From: an uncultured Gemmatimonadales bacterium
GTDB lineage: Bacteria; Gemmatimonadota; Gemmatimonadetes; Longimicrobiales; RSA9
Assembly (NCBI GenBank): GCA_963783305.1
Contig: CAWAMW010000006.1
Span: 136,490-200,489 of the forward strand
DNA: 64,000 nucleotides
Reading direction: 5' to 3'
Of this stretch, positions 54,624 through 64,000 are shown one piece after another (the stretch's first letter is position 1; every line of letters starts with the position of its first letter). The notes under the pieces are model-generated. The model was not told the origin of the DNA and ran no database searches. It saw nothing but the letters and a program-made list of their open reading frames with translations. Both the position numbers and the translations under genes were made by a program.

Positions 54624-54866
54624 ATGCGCATCCGCACGCTCCTCTTCGCCACGTACCGCGACCTCGCCGGCACGGACACCTTCAATGTGGAGCTGCCGGA
54701 CGGCTCCACGGCGGGGGACCTCGTCGCGCGACTGCGGACCAAACAGGGCCTCGATCGCATCCCTTCCGAGCCCGCGCTGGCCGTCAACCAGGTCTACGCA
54801 CCGCTCTCGACCGGCCTCGCCGATGGCGATGAGGTCGCGCTGCTTCCGCCCGTGGCCGGCGGATGA
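54624..54866 (+). CDS. moaD: molybdopterin synthase sulfur carrier
   Basis: GDEVALLPPVAGG C-terminus. Confidence 0.92.
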   Translation: MRIRTLLFATYRDLAGTDTFNVELPDGSTAGDLVARLRTKQGLDRIPSEPALAVNQVYAPLSTGLADGDEVALLPPVAGG

Positions 54867-55300
54867 GCGAACGCGCCTGGATCACCCGGGATGCCATCGA
54901 TCCCGGCTCCGTTCTCGACCGTGTCGGCTCGGCCAGGGATGGCGCCGCGCTCCTTTTCGTGGGCGTGGTGCGGGACCACAACGACGGCTCGAGCGTAACG
55001 GGCCTCACCTACGAGGCGTATGACGAAATGGCGTCGCGGGTGCTGGACGAGATCGCCGGCGAGGCGGCGGAGCGGTTGGGGACGCCGAGGATCGCGGTCG
55101 TCCACCGGGTGGGCGAGCTGGAGGTGGGGGAGGTGAGCGTGGCGATCGCGGCTTCGAGTCCGCACAGGGCGGAGTCGTTCGACGCGACCCGCTACGTCAT
55201 CGAGGAGATCAAGAAGCGCCTGCCGGTGTGGAAGAAGGAGCACTACGAGGAGGGGGACGCGGCGTGGCTCGCGGGCGTGACCCCATCGGTGGACCGGTGA
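54863..55300 (+). CDS. moaE: molybdopterin synthase catalytic subunit
   Basis: FVGVVRD, YEAY, HRVG, PHR, PVWKKE. Confidence 0.94.
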   Translation: MSERAWITRDAIDPGSVLDRVGSARDGAALLFVGVVRDHNDGSSVTGLTYEAYDEMASRVLDEIAGEAAERLGTPRIAVVHRVGELEVGEVSVAIAASSPHRAESFDATRYVIEEIKKRLPVWKKEHYEEGDAAWLAGVTPSVDR

Positions 55301-56280
55301 TGCGCGACCCGCTCGGACGCCGCATCGAGTACCTGCGGATCTCCGTCACCGACAAGTGCAATCTGCGCTGCGTGTACTGCATGCCGCTGCACGGTATGCC
55401 CTGGCTTCGACGGGAGCAGCTGCTGAGCTACGAGGAGATCCGCGATATCGTGGCCACCATGGCCGCGATGGGACTCCGGCGGGTGCGAATCACGGGTGGC
55501 GAGCCCCTCGTGCGCCGGGACGTGACGAACCTCGTCGCCCTGCTGGCGGAGGTATCGGGGATCGACGACATCGCGCTGTCGTCGAACGCCGTCCTGCTGG
55601 GCGATATGGCGCGCGAGCTGCGGGACGCGGGTGTGAACCGCATCAACGTGTCGCTGGACTCGCTCCGCCCCGATCGCGTGGATGCCATCGCCCGGCGCCC
55701 CGGCTCCTTCGACCGGATCATGGATGGGCTGGCGGCGGCCGAGGAGGTGGGGTTCTCGCCCATCAAGATCAACGCGGTCATCATGCGAGGCCGCAACGAC
55801 GACGAGATCGAGGACTTCGCGCGCATCACCCTGGAGCGGCCCTGGCACGTCCGGTTCATCGAGGTGATGCCAGTGGGGGAGAACCTGGACGTTTCGGCGA
55901 ACGAGTACATGCCCGCGAGTGCCATGCTGCGGAGGGTCCGGAGCATTGGCGAGCTGGAGCCCGTGCAGGGGCCCCCCGGCAACGGACCGGCCACGTACTA
56001 CCAGTTCCCCGGAGCGCCGGGCACGGTGGGCGTGATCACGCCCATGAGCCACAACTACTGCGACACGTGCAACCGCATGCGGCTCACCGCGGACGGGCAG
56101 CTCCGGCCGTGCCTCTTCGGCGAGATCCAGACCAACCTCCGCGACCCGCTCCGGGCGGGAGCCGCCCTGGAGCCGCTCATCGAGGAGACCCTCAGGATCA
56201 AGCCGGACCGACACAACCTGGTGCAGGGAAGCGACGTCGGCTCGGGCGGACTCCTGGCGTTGTCCCAGATCGGTGGGTGA
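55300..56280 (+). CDS. moaA: GTP 3',8-cyclase
   Basis: CNLRCVYC, TGGEP, CDTCNRMR, PCLF, C-terminal IGG. Confidence 0.95.
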   Translation: MRDPLGRRIEYLRISVTDKCNLRCVYCMPLHGMPWLRREQLLSYEEIRDIVATMAAMGLRRVRITGGEPLVRRDVTNLVALLAEVSGIDDIALSSNAVLLGDMARELRDAGVNRINVSLDSLRPDRVDAIARRPGSFDRIMDGLAAAEEVGFSPIKINAVIMRGRNDDEIEDFARITLERPWHVRFIEVMPVGENLDVSANEYMPASAMLRRVRSIGELEPVQGPPGNGPATYYQFPGAPGTVGVITPMSHNYCDTCNRMRLTADGQLRPCLFGEIQTNLRDPLRAGAALEPLIEETLRIKPDRHNLVQGSDVGSGGLLALSQIGG

Positions 56281-56296
56281 GCACGGCGGCGTCGCG

Positions 56297-56325
56297 TTGA
56301 CACCCCCCTGAGCCCCCCCTACGTT
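56297..56325 (+). promoter_or_regulatory. putative sigma70 promoter for mdh-sdh operon
   Basis: TTGACA-17nt-TACGTT. Confidence 0.65.
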
Positions 56326-56368
56326 GCCGTTGCTGAGCAAAATTCCTACGAAAAAGCTCGAGGCAACC

Positions 56369-57295
56369 ATGGTCGGCAAGATAACGGTCGTCGGGGCGGG
56401 TCACGTCGGGGCAACCGCCGCACACAGCGTCGCGCGTAAACACCTCGCCCGCGAGGTGGTGATGGTGGATATCGCGGAGGGCATACCGCAGGGGAAGGGT
56501 CTCGACATGTACGAGACCTCGCCCATCGAGGGGTGGGATGCCCGGATCACCGGTTCGAACGGCTACGAAGCGTCGGCCGGGTCGGACATCGTGATCATCA
56601 CCGCGGGGCTCGCACGGAAGCCGGGGATGAGCCGGGACGACCTCCTCCAGAAGAACGCGGAGATCGTGCGGGAGGTCTCGAAGAACGTGAAGGAGACATC
56701 GCCGGACGCGATCCTCATCATGGTCTCGAATCCGCTGGACATCATGGCGTACGTGGCCAAGGAGACCACCGGCTTCCCGCGTGAGCGGGTGATCGGGATG
56801 GCGGGTGTGCTGGACACGGCGCGATACCGGACGTTCCTGTCCATGGAGATGGACGTGAGCGTAGAGGACATCCAGGCTCTGGTGCTTGGCGGCCACGGCG
56901 ACAGCATGGTCCCCGTGGTGAGTATGACCACGGTGAGCGGGATTCCGATCACGCACTTCATCGAGCGCGGTCGTCTCGAGGAGATCATCGAGCGGACGCG
57001 GAAGGGCGGCGGCGAGATCGTCGGCCACCTGAAGACGGGAAGCGCGTATTACGCGCCGGGAGCGGCGTCGGCGCAGATGGCGGAGGCCATCGTGCTGGAC
57101 AAGAAGCGGATCCTGCCGTGCGCGGCGTGGCTCGAGGGCGAATACGGGCTGGACGGTCTGTTCCTGGGGGTGCCGTGCAAGCTCGGCCGGAACGGCCTGG
57201 AGGAGATCATCGAGGTGGACCTCACGGACGAGGAGCGCAGCGCGCTGAAGAAGAGCGCCGCCGACGTCCGCGAGACCATGTCGACGCTGGGCTGA
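56369..57295 (+). CDS. mdh: malate dehydrogenase (LDH-like)
   Basis: [22 protein letters not shown]. Confidence 0.95.
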
Positions 57296-57304
57296 GGCGC
57301 GGAC

Positions 57305-57999
57305 ATGCCACAGACCGTGACGACCCCGATGTCGCGAACGTCCATCGGCAGGAAGCTGCTGATGGCGGGCGCGTCGATCCTTCTCTTCGCCTTCGTCGTG
57401 GGGCACCTCGCCGGGAACCTGAAGATCTTCCTCGGCGAGGGCAGCTTCAATCATTACGCGGAGTGGCTGCGGGTGGCGGGGACGCCACTGTTCCCCGAAC
57501 AGGGAGTCCTCTGGGTCGCTCGCATCGTGCTGATTGCGGCGCTGGGCGTCCACGTGCTCGCGTACGTGGATCTCTGGCTCCGTAAACGGCGGGCGCGGTC
57601 GGTCTCCTACAAGAAGTACGATCCGCAGGTGTTCAGCTGGACCTCACGGACCATGGCGTGGGGCGGGATCGCGATCTTCGCGTTCATCGTCTTCCACCTC
57701 CTGCACCTGACCACCGGGGACGTTCAGCCCGACCTGGCGTACGAGTTCCAGTACGGCAACCCGTACCAGAACGCGCTGGCGGGCTTCAGGGTGTGGTGGG
57801 TGACCGCCTTCTACGTGGTGGGCGTGGTCGCGCTGGGCATGCACCTGTATCACGGTCTGTGGAGTGCGCTCCAGACGTTCGGCATCAACAACCCCAAGTA
57901 CAACCGCTTCCGGAGGCCGACGGCGGGGGTGATCGCGGTCCTGATCACCCTCGGCTATCTGTCGATCCCGTTGAGCGTCATGATGGGAGTGATCGGCTG

Positions 58000-58000
<1 letters not shown>
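57305..58000 (+). CDS. sdhC: succinate dehydrogenase cytochrome b558 subunit
   Basis: Five TM helices with His ligands (HLAGN, HLYHG). Confidence 0.9.
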
Positions 58001-59913
<1,913 letters not shown>

Positions 59914-60013
59914 GGAGTGCCCTGCGGGCACGGGGGGCTCGCTTCGCTCGCGGAGGGGTCGCTTCGCTCCCGGCGGGGCGCTTCGCGCCCGGAACTACTG
60001 ATACGGGGATCTG

Positions 60014-60775
60014 ATGAGACTGAAATTACATATCTGGCGCCAGGCGTCGCGGGCGGAGAAGGGGGGCTTTGAGACGTACGATCTCGACGACGTCTCTGTC
60101 TCCATGTCCTTCCTGGAGATGCTCGACGTGTTGAACGAGCAGCTGATCAAGGAGGGGCGCGACCCCGTGGCCTTCGACCACGACTGTCGCGAGGGCATCT
60201 GCGGCACGTGCGGCATGATGATCAACGGCGTGGCGCACGGCCCGTGGAAGCAGACGACCGCCTGTCAGTTGCACATGCGGGCGTTCGAGGACGGGGACGA
60301 GGTGTGGATCGAGCCCTGGCGCGCCGACGCGTTCCCGGTCCTCAAGGACCTGGTCGTCGACCGTACCGCATTCGACCGGATCATCCAGGCCGGCGGGTAT
60401 ATCTCGGTCCGCACCGGCTCCGCGCCGGATGCCAACGCCATCCCGGTGCCCAAGGACAACGCGGAGCTGGCGTTCGACGCCGCCACCTGCATCGGCTGCG
60501 GCGCGTGCGTGGCCGCCTGTCCGAACGCGTCCGCCATGCTGTTCACTTCCGCGAAGGTCAGCCACCTCAACCTGCTGCCCCAGGGACAGCCGGAGCGCAA
60601 TTCGCGCACGCGCGACATGGTGGTCCAGATGAACTCGGAGAACTTCGGCCACTGCACGAATCACGGCGCCTGCCAGGAAGCGTGTCCGAAGGGGATCAGC
60701 GTGGACTACATCGCCAAGCTGAATCGATACCTGATGCGTTCGGCTACCGCGCGGCCCGAGGCGGGCGTCGGGTGA
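60014..60775 (+). CDS. sdhB: succinate dehydrogenase iron-sulfur subunit
   Basis: [33 protein letters not shown]. Confidence 0.96.
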
Positions 60776-60875
60776 GTAGGAGGCAGGAGTAGGAGGCAGG
60801 AGTAGGAGGCAGGAGTAGGAGGCAGGAGTAGGAGGCAGGAGTAGGAGGCAGGAGTAGGAGGCAGGAGTAGGAGGC
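60774..60875. repeat. perfect 13-bp tandem repeat GAGTAGGAGGCAG x ~7.8
   Basis: Directly visible. Confidence 0.95.
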
Positions 60876-61382
60876 GATCCGCTAACCTATTCCGATCCAT
60901 TTGGCCTCTGTCCTGATCCGAACGACCCCCTCTGCACGGTTACAAATTTTGCTGCGGGGTTTGGGGACGCAATCACTTTCGGCCTCACACGTGGTGCCAG
61001 ACTCGCCATGGGCACTGATGGCCAGGTAGACCGCGGTAGCGTGGCATTCGGTGCAGGAGCAGTCACTGGTGTAGGCACTGGAGTCGCGTTAGCCGGAGGA
61101 ATTGCACAGGCAGGTAAAGCTGGCTTTTCCACACTCACTTCCGCAGGCAGTCGAATATCTGGCAGCGCACACCGTCTCGCCACAACGGCAGGTGGCCGGT
61201 TTGCGAAAGGGGCAAGTAATGGTTTTGCTTCAACAGCTCCTGGGTTTCCTGGCCAGGTCGTCGGTGCAACGATACCGGAGAAGGCGGGCATTGCCGTGGG
61301 GAAAGCAGCAGGGTGGGCCGCCAAGAGCCCAGAGCAAGTGGGAGCAGTATTGGAGGCCGTCCGTAGAATCTTCCAGGAGTAG
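60870..61382 (+). pseudogene. orphan Rhs C-terminal (toxin tip) module
   Basis: In frame upstream of the ORF at 61008: GGDPLTYSDPFGLCP, matching the Rhs core-end motif PxxxxDPxGL, followed by a Gly/Ala-rich tip; no Rhs core or start upstream; lower GC. Confidence 0.75.
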
Positions 61383-61384
61383 CC

Positions 61385-61918
61385 ATGGTGTACGTGTTAA
61401 TCGTCGCGGCAGTGATAGTTGGCGGGGTGGGCCTATTGGTAATTCTTGACCAATTCCCGGCCAAATATCGTAACCTCGACACCCCTCGGGTTCGTGCACT
61501 CTTGGAATTGCTCTATGTCAGGGGGACGGATCAGGGTTTTTTGCAGTTCAAGGGGAAGCGTTACCGGGACGGCTTCCGGGTCTACAAAGTGGTGCGAAGC
61601 ATAGACGATGTGGTATTTGCTTTCGACCTTCCGGACGAAACTCGTCGGGCTGTAGCGCATGAGAAGCTACTTCAGCTATTTGAATTGCATGGGTGCACCG
61701 CGGTTGAACCAGGGAAGAGCTCTGAGAGCCGGATAGCGATTTGCCCACCTATCGTTCCCCAGCTGGTGGCAGTCACCGAGGCTGTGATTCGCGACGGCTT
61801 GGATGAGGACCCGGAGAAAGGATGGGTGGCATGGGTCGAGAAGACTGCCCCAGATACCTCAGCCCATCCGGGGTTCTCCTCCCGTCCAAAAATACCCGGA
61901 TCAGGCCTGTACGGATGA
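61385..61918 (+). CDS. hypothetical protein with N-terminal TM, putative cognate immunity protein
   Basis: Starts 2 nt after the Rhs-tip stop; lower GC. Confidence 0.6.
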   Translation: MVYVLIVAAVIVGGVGLLVILDQFPAKYRNLDTPRVRALLELLYVRGTDQGFLQFKGKRYRDGFRVYKVVRSIDDVVFAFDLPDETRRAVAHEKLLQLFELHGCTAVEPGKSSESRIAICPPIVPQLVAVTEAVIRDGLDEDPEKGWVAWVEKTAPDTSAHPGFSSRPKIPGSGLYG

Positions 61919-61938: not shown

Positions 61939-62495
61939 AGAGCCCGGCGCGATCGAGTCTCAGATCGGAGGCAGCTGACTTCGCTCCTCAGCCGGATGGC
62001 CGGATCCGCGCCGGGCTCTGCTCGAAGAAGGGGGTGGAGCCCGGCCGGATCAATTCTAACGTCGGAGGCGGCTCAACTGGCCCCTCAATATGTTGTCTCG
62101 GATCTCGACCGGGCTCCTGATCCAGGATAAGCATGGCCTTCTGTCTCGTCCAGAGTTTTGCCCACCGAGCCCCGGTGCGATCGAGTCTGGCGCGGGAGGC
62201 CGCAGATTCGCGCCTCGAGCCGTTTTGTCGGATCCGCACCGGGACACCGGCGGGCATACTCCACCCCCGCGCGGCGGGCGTCGGTTTCACCCGCCGCGGA
62301 GACAACTACCTCAGTTTTCAAATCGCACCCAGCGGACGCGAGCGCCGCGTAGCTCGATACTAACAAGTCCTCGGAGGCGCCTGTGCTGCTGGCCCTCGAC
62401 ACGCCTTCATCAGAGACTGGGCGGCCTCTCGGTCGGGGTGGGCGATTCGGAGTCGGAAGCCGGCCTGTGCCGCTTCGATATAGTCTGTCCGCCCC
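61939..62495. ncRNA. array of structured repeat units, putative bridge-RNA guide loops of the adjacent IS110
   Basis: Units at 61939-62019, 62036-62117, 62171-62243, 62344-62425, 62435-62495 share an outer stem, an inner GAGG/GAAG...CCTC/CTTC hairpin and two variable loop strands. Confidence 0.6.
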
Positions 62496-62547
62496 TCGTC
62501 CCCGGGTCCTGCCGCTGGTGCACTGGAACTACTCGGTCATGAGATCC

Positions 62548-63819
62548 CTACCGCACGGCCGCGAGTGGACGATTGCGACGCTTCCGCTTCGGCGGTTCCG
62601 GCGTCCAGGTGCGGCCGTCGCGGGCCACCGAGTAGAGCAGGCCCAGCGCCCGCCGGCTCACCGCCACCAGCGCCGGGATCTTCTTCTTCGGCCCGTGCCG
62701 CTCCACGTACGCGTCGAATTGCTTTCGGTACAGTCCGTCCTGCTGGATGAGGCGGAGCGCCAGCATGTACATGCTCCTGCGGAGCACCGGTCGCCCCCGC
62801 TTCGAGATGTGGACCTCGCCCACCCTTTTCCCGCTCGAGCTCTCCACCAGCGAAAGCCCGGCCACCTTGTAGACCTGCTGCTTCGTCTCGTACGCCTTCG
62901 GATCACCAACGGAGCCCAGGAAGACGGCGGCCGTGACCGGCGCCACCTCCGGCACCGAGAGCACGCTCTCCGAGGCGTCCACTCCCTCAAGGGTCTCGAC
63001 CATCCACTTCTCGACCGTCCGGAGCTGCCGATTGTAGAGTCGGAGCCGCTCGATCAGGAGCGGGATCTCGTCCTTGGCGGCCCCTTCGCCGCTGGCGAGC
63101 CCCACCGTCCGCTCCGCCGCCGCCCTCAGCTCCTGGTACGTCTCCTCGCCCAGGTGATTCCGGCTCGCCTTCTTCATGACCCGGAGCACCGACCGCTTCG
63201 GTGCTGCCAGGAACGCGGCGGGAGAGGGGAACGCTTCCAGCAGCGCGATCGGCGTCTTCTTGCCGAAATCCTTGAACCGCCGCTCGAACTCCGGCCAGAC
63301 CGCCTCGAGGACGCTCTTGAGTCGCGTGATCGTCGCGCGCCGCTCGCCCGTCAGACGCTCTCGCGCGCTCACCAGCGAGCGCAGGTCGGCGTACGCCGGG
63401 TCGAGGAAGGCGAACGCCACAAAATTGCCATTGGCCACCAGGTCCGTGATCACCATGGCGTCCTTCGGGTCCGTCTTCAGCGCCTGGTTGTGGACGACCT
63501 CCTTCCACCGCTTCGAGTGCGCCGGGAGGACCGTCACCACCTGGTAGCCGAGATCGGCCAGGTAGAAGGCGAGGGTGAAGCCGTAGATCCCGGCGAACTC
63601 GATCCCCACTATCGTCTGCTCGGGCGTGGCCTCCGGGGCCGCGGCCTGGATGTACTCCACCGCGGCGTCGAAGCCATCGCGATCGGTGCCGAATGTGAAC
63701 GATCGGCTGTCGGCCTCGTCCCGGGGGCGGACTACCAGCGTGTGGGTGTACTTGCCCGCGTCGACGCCGACCACGGCGGCTGCGTCCAGGGCACGACGGC
63801 GCTTGCGATACCGGCTCAT
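62548..63819 (-). mobile_element. IS110-family DEDD recombinase/transposase
   Basis: VGVDAGK (D), GIEF (E), KTDPKDA (DD), C-terminal GLSLVESSSGK...ISKRGRPVLR serine domain; AGGAGG RBS; intact 423-aa ORF. Confidence 0.93.
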
Positions 63820-64000
63820 GGGATTCCTCCTGAGGGGGTGGTAGATTTTGAAGATCTGCAGGACTGCTCTGGGTACAGCTGGAGGGCAAGACGGAGGGCC
63901 ACGCCCGTCTACGGCTACGCGTACGCGCGGAGCCGGGCGCGTGAGAGGAACTGCGGGGATGTGAAAAGAGACGCCGGAAAGCTCTATCGGCTTATAGGCG

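Follow-up and report, generated by a model that had tools for sequence, protein, structure and literature searches.

Elements of the IS1111 group of the IS110 family, such as ISEc11, ISKpn4 and ISPa11, are the closest described relatives of the locus considered here, which lies at the end of a 64,000-nucleotide (nt) stretch of DNA (the window) from an uncultured Gemmatimonadales bacterium and combines an IS110-family recombinase gene with an array of guide-like non-coding units and two cargo genes. As described in the available parts of the reports on their seekRNAs or bridge RNAs (PMC11187229, PMC11208160), IS1111-group elements have a recombinase with DEDD and Tnp domains and a long 3′ non-coding region, and their RNAs carry internal loops with two guide strands, separate for donor and target, in which the top-strand complement lies 5′ of the bottom-strand match in element orientation (PMC11187229). 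By sequence, the recombinase domains, the donor loop, the target-loop features and the guide order recur in the window locus. The restriction to one target loop does not: four target-type loops are arranged around one donor loop, whereas the available parts of Durrant 2024, Siddiquee 2024, Hiraizumi 2024, Perry 2025, Pares-Guillen 2025, a 2026 review and the COMPASS preprint collectively describe one target loop per bridge RNA, together with the carriage of cargo. Furthermore, the far end of the element is a predicted toxin coding sequence, a natural cargo of toxin/immunity type, and short imperfect blocks are the candidates for the 7–17 bp sub-terminal inverted repeats of IS1111 elements. In the IS1111 group a promoter forms at the circle junction; none was found here.

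By its protein and the predicted logic of its guides, the element is a member of the IS110 family that works like an IS1111-type bridge recombination element. We suggest, with a probability of roughly 0.83, that it encodes a guide RNA with one donor loop and four target loops, and that its insertion, likely directed by the last loop, at the boundary N/D-P|V (the bar marking the cut) would swap the C-terminal tip of an Rhs gene in frame. The literature searched, which lies outside supplements and ISfinder and was available in part, holds no report of several target loops in one element or of IS110-driven exchange of Rhs tips.

Some traits of the locus are shared with other systems. The expanded-cargo IS110 loci of Hu 2026 (bioRxiv 10.64898/2026.08.14.744561) also join cargo to repeated non-coding units, but their tandem units are at least 95% identical, and the words Rhs and toxin do not occur in the main text. 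Tandem dual-spacer stem-loop units are known from TIGR-Tas, whose reader, according to the accessible part of Faure 2025 (PMC12045711), is a Nop-domain protein of the same superfamily; Tas, however, has no DEDD transposase domain and no donor loop, both of which the element has. [quoted passage not shown] The exchange of Rhs toxin/immunity and orphan modules, as set out in the part at hand of Hagan 2023 (PMC10539506), likewise places a tip and an immunity gene at the core boundary and piles up displaced modules downstream. The route published there is homologous recombination, whereas here the joint is guide-matched and without core homology, and the recombinase travels along.

By sequence, the order of the element is Rhs tip, second gene, array, recombinase and end. 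A first-pass annotation, made from the letters of the window, had confined the locus to the recombinase gene and the array; the element reaches about 1 kb further (60882–61918), over an Rhs tip and a probable immunity gene. Its features and its landing place are as follows.

60774–60872, plus strand: host flank with a 13-nt tandem repeat of the repetitive extragenic palindromic (REP)-like kind behind sdhB; the landing place of the element, outside it.
60873–60881, plus strand: left target half (GGCGATCCG), of which 8 of 9 bases agree with the left guide of unit 1.
60882–61382, plus strand: predicted Rhs C-terminal toxin tip, 166 amino acids; its first codon is the element end (donor right half, CTAACC..).
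61385–61918, plus strand: probable immunity gene by position only, 177 amino acids, 2 nt behind the tip, with its stop ~20 nt from unit 1.
61939–62019, minus strand: unit 1 (last loop), predicted to target Rhs; left guide 62001–61993 (GGCCATCCG), right guide 61964–61959, which reads CTCAGA on the target.
62036–62117, minus strand: unit 2, a target-type loop; left guide 62099–62090, right guide 62061–62056.
62167–62247, minus strand: unit 3, predicted to target integron attC; left guide 62229–62220 (GACAAAACGG), right guide 62192–62187, which reads CTGGCG.
62315–62322, minus strand: conserved TTTGACAA box (TTTGAAAA in the window), closing the donor module.
62323–62425, minus strand: unit 4 (loop B), the predicted donor-binding loop; left guide 62411–62401 (GATGAAGGCGT), right guide 62365–62360.
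62430–62520, minus strand: unit 5 (loop A), the first of the target-type loops; it precedes the donor loop, as is canonical.
62548–63819, minus strand: IS110-family DEDD recombinase, 423 amino acids, intact (D20, E74, D117, D120, S329).
63820–64000, minus strand: short end on the side of the recombinase open reading frame (ORF), also found in homologues; the contig breaks off within the donor left half (..TTATAGGCG at 63992–64000 on the plus strand).

The window ends where its contig (C6) ends, and the genome it comes from (G000; 4.35 Mb, 96% complete, 17 contigs) holds one copy of the element. Relatives were collected from named genomes (3 loci, in Gemmatimonadales and Longimicrobiales), from further genomes of the family and of the phylum Gemmatimonadota, and from metagenome contigs (79 loci kept out of 142 confirmed matches), and an alignment search of viral contigs found none. 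For the comparisons, 54 non-redundant loci out of 106 were used; all have an identity of 45% or more, a complete C-terminus and no less than 500 nt of downstream sequence. Past the stop codon they have a variable loop A, a conserved loop B closed by the TTTGACAA box, and then separate units, two in 38 loci, three in 12 and one in 4. The flanks of homologues, to which the first-pass annotation had pointed for loop number and variation, thus show 2–3 loops beyond the donor loop in 50 of the 54 cases.

The recombinase has Pfam matches to PF01548 (E = 1.6e-27) and PF02371 (E = 8.8e-17); the DEDD RuvC-like domain and the Tnp domain with its catalytic serine are both present, with matches to the ISCro4 and IS621 chains. 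Among 42 sequences, D20, D117, D120 and S329 are invariant and E74 is conserved in at least 90%. These are the catalytic residues shared with IS621, their roles being taken from the available part of the IS621 work (PMC11208158).

The IS110 ORF sits on the minus strand, which makes the array its 3′ non-coding region, to be read on that strand; the region measures ~610 nt from the recombinase stop to the last unit. The placement downstream of the ORF given at first was right, but the units had been written on the strand opposite to the RNA. Units 1–3 are present as then described and form a family of 36-nt direct repeats, 75% identical to unit 1 and spaced by 97 and 131 nt; their outer arms are fully or largely complementary, those of unit 1 (61939–61951 and 62007–62019) to 100%. 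Units after loop B have the form GGATCC – guide – GAGG..CCTCC – guide – GATC, with conserved blocks flanking the guides. In 65 aligned units, three of them from the window and 62 from homologues, 90.2% of cells are paired in a two-stem internal-loop fold that was drawn from these very sequences, against 77.2% in shuffles (0 of 500 as high) and 34–42% with slid partners, and 18 of 21 pairs change on both sides. The early observation that stems stay paired while loops vary holds.

A covariance model was built from this alignment. Of its 129 hits, 14 were dropped (neighbouring elements, loop A, truncated or second-clade loci) and one unit of locus L017 was added from a pattern parse; 65 of the 116 scored units were in the training set. 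The model finds three copies in the 4.35-Mb host genome (150 of 8863 first-look candidates scored), and in the complete genome G033 all 14 copies fall inside one 31-kb Rhs locus. Since 3 of 3 copies in the host genome are at this locus, the units are not a dispersed REP family, a possibility that the first-pass annotation had raised against itself. Units 4 and 5 in the window give no match to the model but keep the inner GAGG/CCTCC-type stem. They had been called divergent with a retained inner hairpin, which is correct for the stem; unit 4, however, is the predicted donor loop rather than a degenerate copy, and unit 5 is a further target-type loop. RNAalifold recovered the inner stem alone on the donor module, and no family reached significance in an Rfam scan of the region.

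The TTTGACAA box is nearly invariant: T, T, G, A, C, A and A occur at positions 0–6 in 52, 53, 52, 53, 47, 53 and 51 of 53 loci. We considered and rejected it as an element end or a −35 box; no conserved −10 box lies at 17 nt, and the true end is 1.4 kb further. A promoter scan of the linear region gave 0 promoter-like sites. The ORF-side end holds a TATAAG-like hexamer 5 nt from its edge, but the tip start offers no TTGACA at 17 nt. The sub-terminal repeats (ATC..ATAG blocks) are short and imperfect, with a mean local score of 5.0 against 4.0 when shuffled (34 loci).

Unit 4 (loop B) is identified as the donor-binding loop by the agreement of its guides with both element ends. For the right guide, junctions were set by the protein motif alone. 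Its complement agrees with the tip start at positions 2–5 in 36, 39, 41 and 40 of 41 non-redundant loci; over positions 3–5 this amounts to 120 of 123 agreements (87 of 90 with identical pairs collapsed), compared with a mean of 64.8 and a maximum of 83 in shuffles (0 of 10000 as high). The last five bases of the left guide agree with the ORF-side end in 34, 35, 35, 35 and 33 of 35 loci, and one left-guide position covaries with that end (G/G in 29, C/C in 6). In the window the right guide reads CTAACA where the tip starts CTAACC, and the last 5 nt of the left guide agree with the ORF-side end. Position 1 shows a different pattern. Among the 27 loci with a displaced tip, 26 have a tip whose first base is the first one that the last unit reads through its right guide (G in 16, C in 10), although the Rhs codon at this site is mostly a V codon. 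We infer that the position-1 base would be donor-derived, its reading following strand exchange as with the handshake bases of IS621.

The target-type loops were compared with insertion sites rebuilt from the 24 loci in which both junctions are available. The best unit agrees with its target at 11.0 of 14 positions on average, against 7.6 when targets are shuffled between loci (0 of 5000 shuffles reach the observed value) and 4.9 at random sites. This best unit is the last one in 15 of 24 loci and another one in 9. The last unit is of the Rhs type in 47 of 54 loci, and other units are in 8 of 62; its left guide reads as the codons D-N-P, N-N-P, G-D-P or G-H-P, the end motif of the Rhs core, as Pfam matches confirm. 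In the window, unit 1 fits the left junction (8 of 9 bases).

Other loops fit other sites. Non-terminal units match the insertion sites of L017 and L105 at 14 of 14 positions, both lying in attC-type sites 6 nt past the AAC/AAT of the 5′ core, and those of L044 and L050 at 13 of 14. L044, L050 and L084 share one intergenic repeat as their site. ARAGORN found 0 tRNA genes beside such targets in 9 loci; the repeat may be the att arm of an integrative element, a suggestion that rests on a stretch resembling the 3′ half of a tRNA, read by eye. L048 and L050 have recombinases that are 95% identical, and their two guide sets are the same: L048 sits at an Rhs site, fitted by its last loop, and L050 at the non-Rhs repeat, fitted by its first. 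The idea, already put forward in the first-pass annotation, of a multi-guide array giving one recombinase several specificities gains support from this difference and from guides that fit insertion sites far above shuffled levels.

Unit 3 is predicted to address integron attC sites of the host. Against the 5′ end of the host attC (TAACAAACGG to the left of the cut, TTGGCG to the right), six bases left and five bases right of the cut are exact, 11 consecutive ones, and the ungapped agreement is 12 of 14; the distance from AAC equals that in L017 and L105. With one bulge allowed, all 11 exact matches of the unit 3 pattern in the genome are copies of the host attC family, next to a tyrosine recombinase on contig C15, while 18 other genome sites come within two mismatches of unit 3 by chance. 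Because the 11 matches are one family and such chance sites exist, the weight of this evidence lies in the position. An IS1111-attC group (ISKpn4, ISPst6) was reportedly described by Tetu and Holmes in 2008 and by Post and Hall in 2009. The present element resembles that group in using the attC of integron cassettes as a target (unit 3; L017, L105), but here attC is one of several specificities of a single element, with a loop of its own. IS1111 members that target attC also appear in the available part of PMC11187229.

Several observations concern attC-like sequences elsewhere in the host genome. An integron-like locus on C15 (291438–301300) has a tyrosine recombinase followed by an array of ~150-nt attC-like repeats, and further attC-like copies occur at C16:795185–799750, C12:269 and C14:8185. 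At C14:8176 the donor guides of the window (GGCGT and CTAACA) agree at 12 of 14 positions with an attC-like 5′ core, which could be chance or may permit donor-type recombination at attC. Beside the repeats on C16 (800600–799945, minus strand) lies a frameshifted and truncated IS110 recombinase, 34% identical to the query and resembling the second clade described below.

The cargo ties the element to Rhs genes. From 60873 the plus strand reads G-D-P-L-T-Y-S-D-P-F-G-L-C-P, of which the tip takes L-T-Y-S-D-P-F-G-L-C-P; it begins at the PxxxxDPxG core boundary, and the window has neither a start codon nor an Rhs core upstream of it. Homologues of the window tip do sit on Rhs cores: P0121 (55% across 55% of the query, E = 9.9e-18) and the RHS repeat protein P0122 (E = 6e-6). 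In homologous loci the tip motif lies 0.7–1.2 kb past the array. To the left of the tip, 15 of the 54 loci have an Rhs core (contig ends cut two more), 12 run into the end of another element, the remaining 14 have other sequence, and 13 have an unclassed flank. In G033 and G022 the element tip is the in-frame C-terminus of Rhs frames of 1732 and 1672 codons with RHS_repeat matches, and the order is Rhs with tip, second gene, array, recombinase, end and displaced tip. A displaced tip directly behind the ORF-side end is found in 27 of 54 loci, against a background of 0.002 motifs per kb and 20 in the whole host genome; it starts exactly at the V/L codon and carries no core sequence. In G033, G193 and G336 such cassettes are stacked at one boundary, some with broken recombinases. 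In sequencing run X8 a contig from a near relative, for which the joint and the loose end were taken as one contig from their lengths, covers the array, has other cargo and rejoins the window at the tip start; immediately ahead of that junction stand the codons V-Y-G-Y-A-G-G, which place this relative in a true Rhs core. No RNA data set is listed among the runs that hold the sequence. Homology between relatives stops at the outer stem of the last unit.

The tips turn over faster than the recombinases. The 37 tips of 147–176 amino acids fall into 29 families, and in all 37 cases a second ORF follows, ending −2 to 142 nt from the last unit; in 30 of 30 pairs of recombinases that are at least 90% identical, the tips have no mutual BLASTP match. 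Pfam matches in 7 of 36 tips are to Ntox10, colicin E5 nuclease, M23, M15/VanY and YkuD, with NlpC/P60 and ParB below the cut-off. As a separate observation, the Gly/Ala-rich tip of the window (60882–61382) belongs to one family with that of L014, though the L014 recombinase is only 55% identical. At L108–L109 (G033 C1, ~818–833 kb) a block of a 1015-amino-acid primase-like and a 320-amino-acid integrase-like ORF, read by eye, occurs twice in an Rhs stack with duplicated Rhs fragments.

The same layout extends to a second IS110 clade (L009, L018, L019, L022 and L024–L027), 36–41% identical and with its own scaffold, of which eight loci were read by eye. Its donor guide, ending AGATGT or AGGTGT, fits its own end, and the TTTGACAA box, several units with Rhs-type guides and tip cargo are all present.

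The proposed mechanism is modelled on IS621, in which, as far as the available parts of Perry 2025 and Hiraizumi 2024 (PMC11208158) describe it, each loop binds a dimer of its own and the loops function when split. The array would be transcribed, and each loop would be bound by a recombinase dimer; in a given event, dimers would occupy the donor loop and any one target loop. A circular form in which ORF-side end and tip start are joined would recombine with the N/D-P|V site of an Rhs gene, probably at the two leading bases of the V/L codon, of which the first would follow the left partner in handshake-like fashion. The product would be the core fused to the new tip, followed by immunity gene, array, recombinase and end, with the old tip pushed behind. 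The left junction would recreate the target, so that later elements could stack at the boundary. The tips would be antibacterial toxins and the second genes their immunity proteins, and the non-Rhs loops would provide parking or vehicle sites (integron cassettes, other mobile DNA) in hosts lacking Rhs. As for how a new tip–immunity pair is gained, our guess is that the far end slips to the start of a tip further upstream and that a deletion follows.

Several points weigh against this interpretation. The left-guide score is the better of two registers, and 4 of the 24 loci reach only 6–8 of 14. The shuffle tests were computed over related loci and, since these are kin, overstate significance. 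For unit 2 no genome site has fewer than two mismatches, one-base bulges included, and for loop A no target above shuffled level was found in its own locus with self-matches set aside; a genome site with one mismatch to loop A was rejected as indistinguishable from chance. The commonest non-Rhs guide pattern is absent from 4 of 4 host genomes searched. The window genome (17 contigs, 96% complete) gives no RHS_repeat match, and the right junction of the window copy lies beyond the assembled contig, which stops inside the donor left half. No guide match accounts for the joining of new tip–immunity pairs to the array. Finally, Pfam assigns no family to 29 of 36 tips or to either cargo gene of the window, and in the Atlas the tip has no name and the second gene has only nameless matches at 0.88, under the lead level of 0.9. 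As most tips and the window cargo are thus without family assignment, the toxin and immunity roles rest on position.

If the mechanism is accepted, its purpose can be read in two ways. Integrons stack cassettes at attI and express the newest, and Tn7 and CRISPR-associated transposons separate homing from the targeting of mobile elements. The element would be like them in having the newest cassette in the expressed position and two target classes, but target choice would here reside in an array of RNA loops, with one small protein as catalyst. We consider it an even chance that the element serves its host as an RNA-programmed weapon exchange, in which the natural guide array acts as an RNA-guided integron for Rhs toxins, loads a new tip with its immunity gene in frame, archives old tips downstream and provides separate loops for parking in integron cassettes and mobile DNA, with spread from cell to cell; as part of the same claim, the array would be re-programmed to follow variants of the Rhs boundary codons and local attC sequences.

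Alternatively, the same mechanism may serve a selfish purpose, to which we give somewhat less than even odds: the Rhs motif would be a mere landing pad, the cargo would repair the interrupted gene or addict the host, and diversification would be a by-product. This alternative is compatible with the mechanism proposed above and differs on why, not on how. It is favoured by the existence of cargo-less derivatives without an Rhs loop (L083, L084, L089, L093), which retain a 114-nt end with the tip-start motif, with a stop codon in some; by the many copies at non-Rhs sites, the window copy among them; and by the patchy distribution of the element, which was matched in 4 of 73 family genomes and 10 of 401 genomes of the phylum sample, own genome included in both. 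The tips, however, are intact, highly diverse and replaced faster than the recombinase, and the second clade retains the layout despite its low identity.

A very unlikely reading restricts function to the donor loop, the canonical first loop and possibly the last one, and takes the units in the middle for relics of local duplication. Unit 2 and loop A are without an identified target, the number of units ranges from 1 to 3, and tandem repeat units beside IS110 are described in the available part of Hu 2026 (bioRxiv 10.64898/2026.08.14.744561). Those repeats, however, are at least 95% identical by criterion, whereas the array units are ~75% identical and their guides differ. Non-terminal loops also fit the actual insertion site at 13–14 of 14 in four loci, unit 3 fits the host attC where homologues insert, and the stems show compensatory changes, all of which argue for working guides.

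Exchange of tips by homologous recombination in the Rhs core, with the insertion sequence hitchhiking, is the published model (PMC10539506, as available), and ordinary orphan modules with core fragments do occur in the same loci (G259, G033). We nevertheless regard it as highly improbable for these elements, given that displaced tips have the V/L codon as their exact start and lack core homology upstream of it, that tips accompany the element to non-Rhs sites (the window, L017, L044, L050 and L105), and that the opening bases of the tip and the donor guide covary. A view of the units as hairpins in DNA, be they REP-like repeats, terminators or attC-like recombination sites, and not as loops of a guide RNA, is scarcely credible: the end of homology at the outer stem of the last unit would be expected at a recombination site, but the three model copies in the host genome and the 14 of G033 are confined as described, and the loop strands spell insertion sites in bridge-RNA geometry on the minus strand.

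If the preferred reading, RNA-guided insertion at the Rhs boundary, is true, it would provide a site-specific route for the exact exchange of polymorphic toxin tips at the core boundary, for which the published answer is homologous recombination. It would also be a case of natural multiplexing in bridge recombinases, with one donor loop serving several target loops, which suggests that target-loop arrays could address several sites with one small protein. A scarless, in-frame C-terminal swap by an RNA-guided recombinase would in addition be a model for programmable exchange of protein domains.

The window copy itself sits, by its guide match, at an off-target site of the Rhs guide inside the REP-like repeat. 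Considering this site, together with an assembly in which no Rhs repeat was detected, the window tip is likely silent. The 13-nt purine-rich tandem repeat behind sdhB is present in 30 exact copies spread over 7 contigs, many of them with a partial inverted copy next in line, and related repeats occur at many loci. An empty site is not visible in 6 genomes of the genus, in which matches stop at the sdhB stop codon. Upstream of the element (54624–60775), ORF translations indicate a housekeeping run of MoaD-, MoaE- and MoaA-like proteins, malate dehydrogenase and sdhC-A-B, a Pfam scan having been made for the last only.

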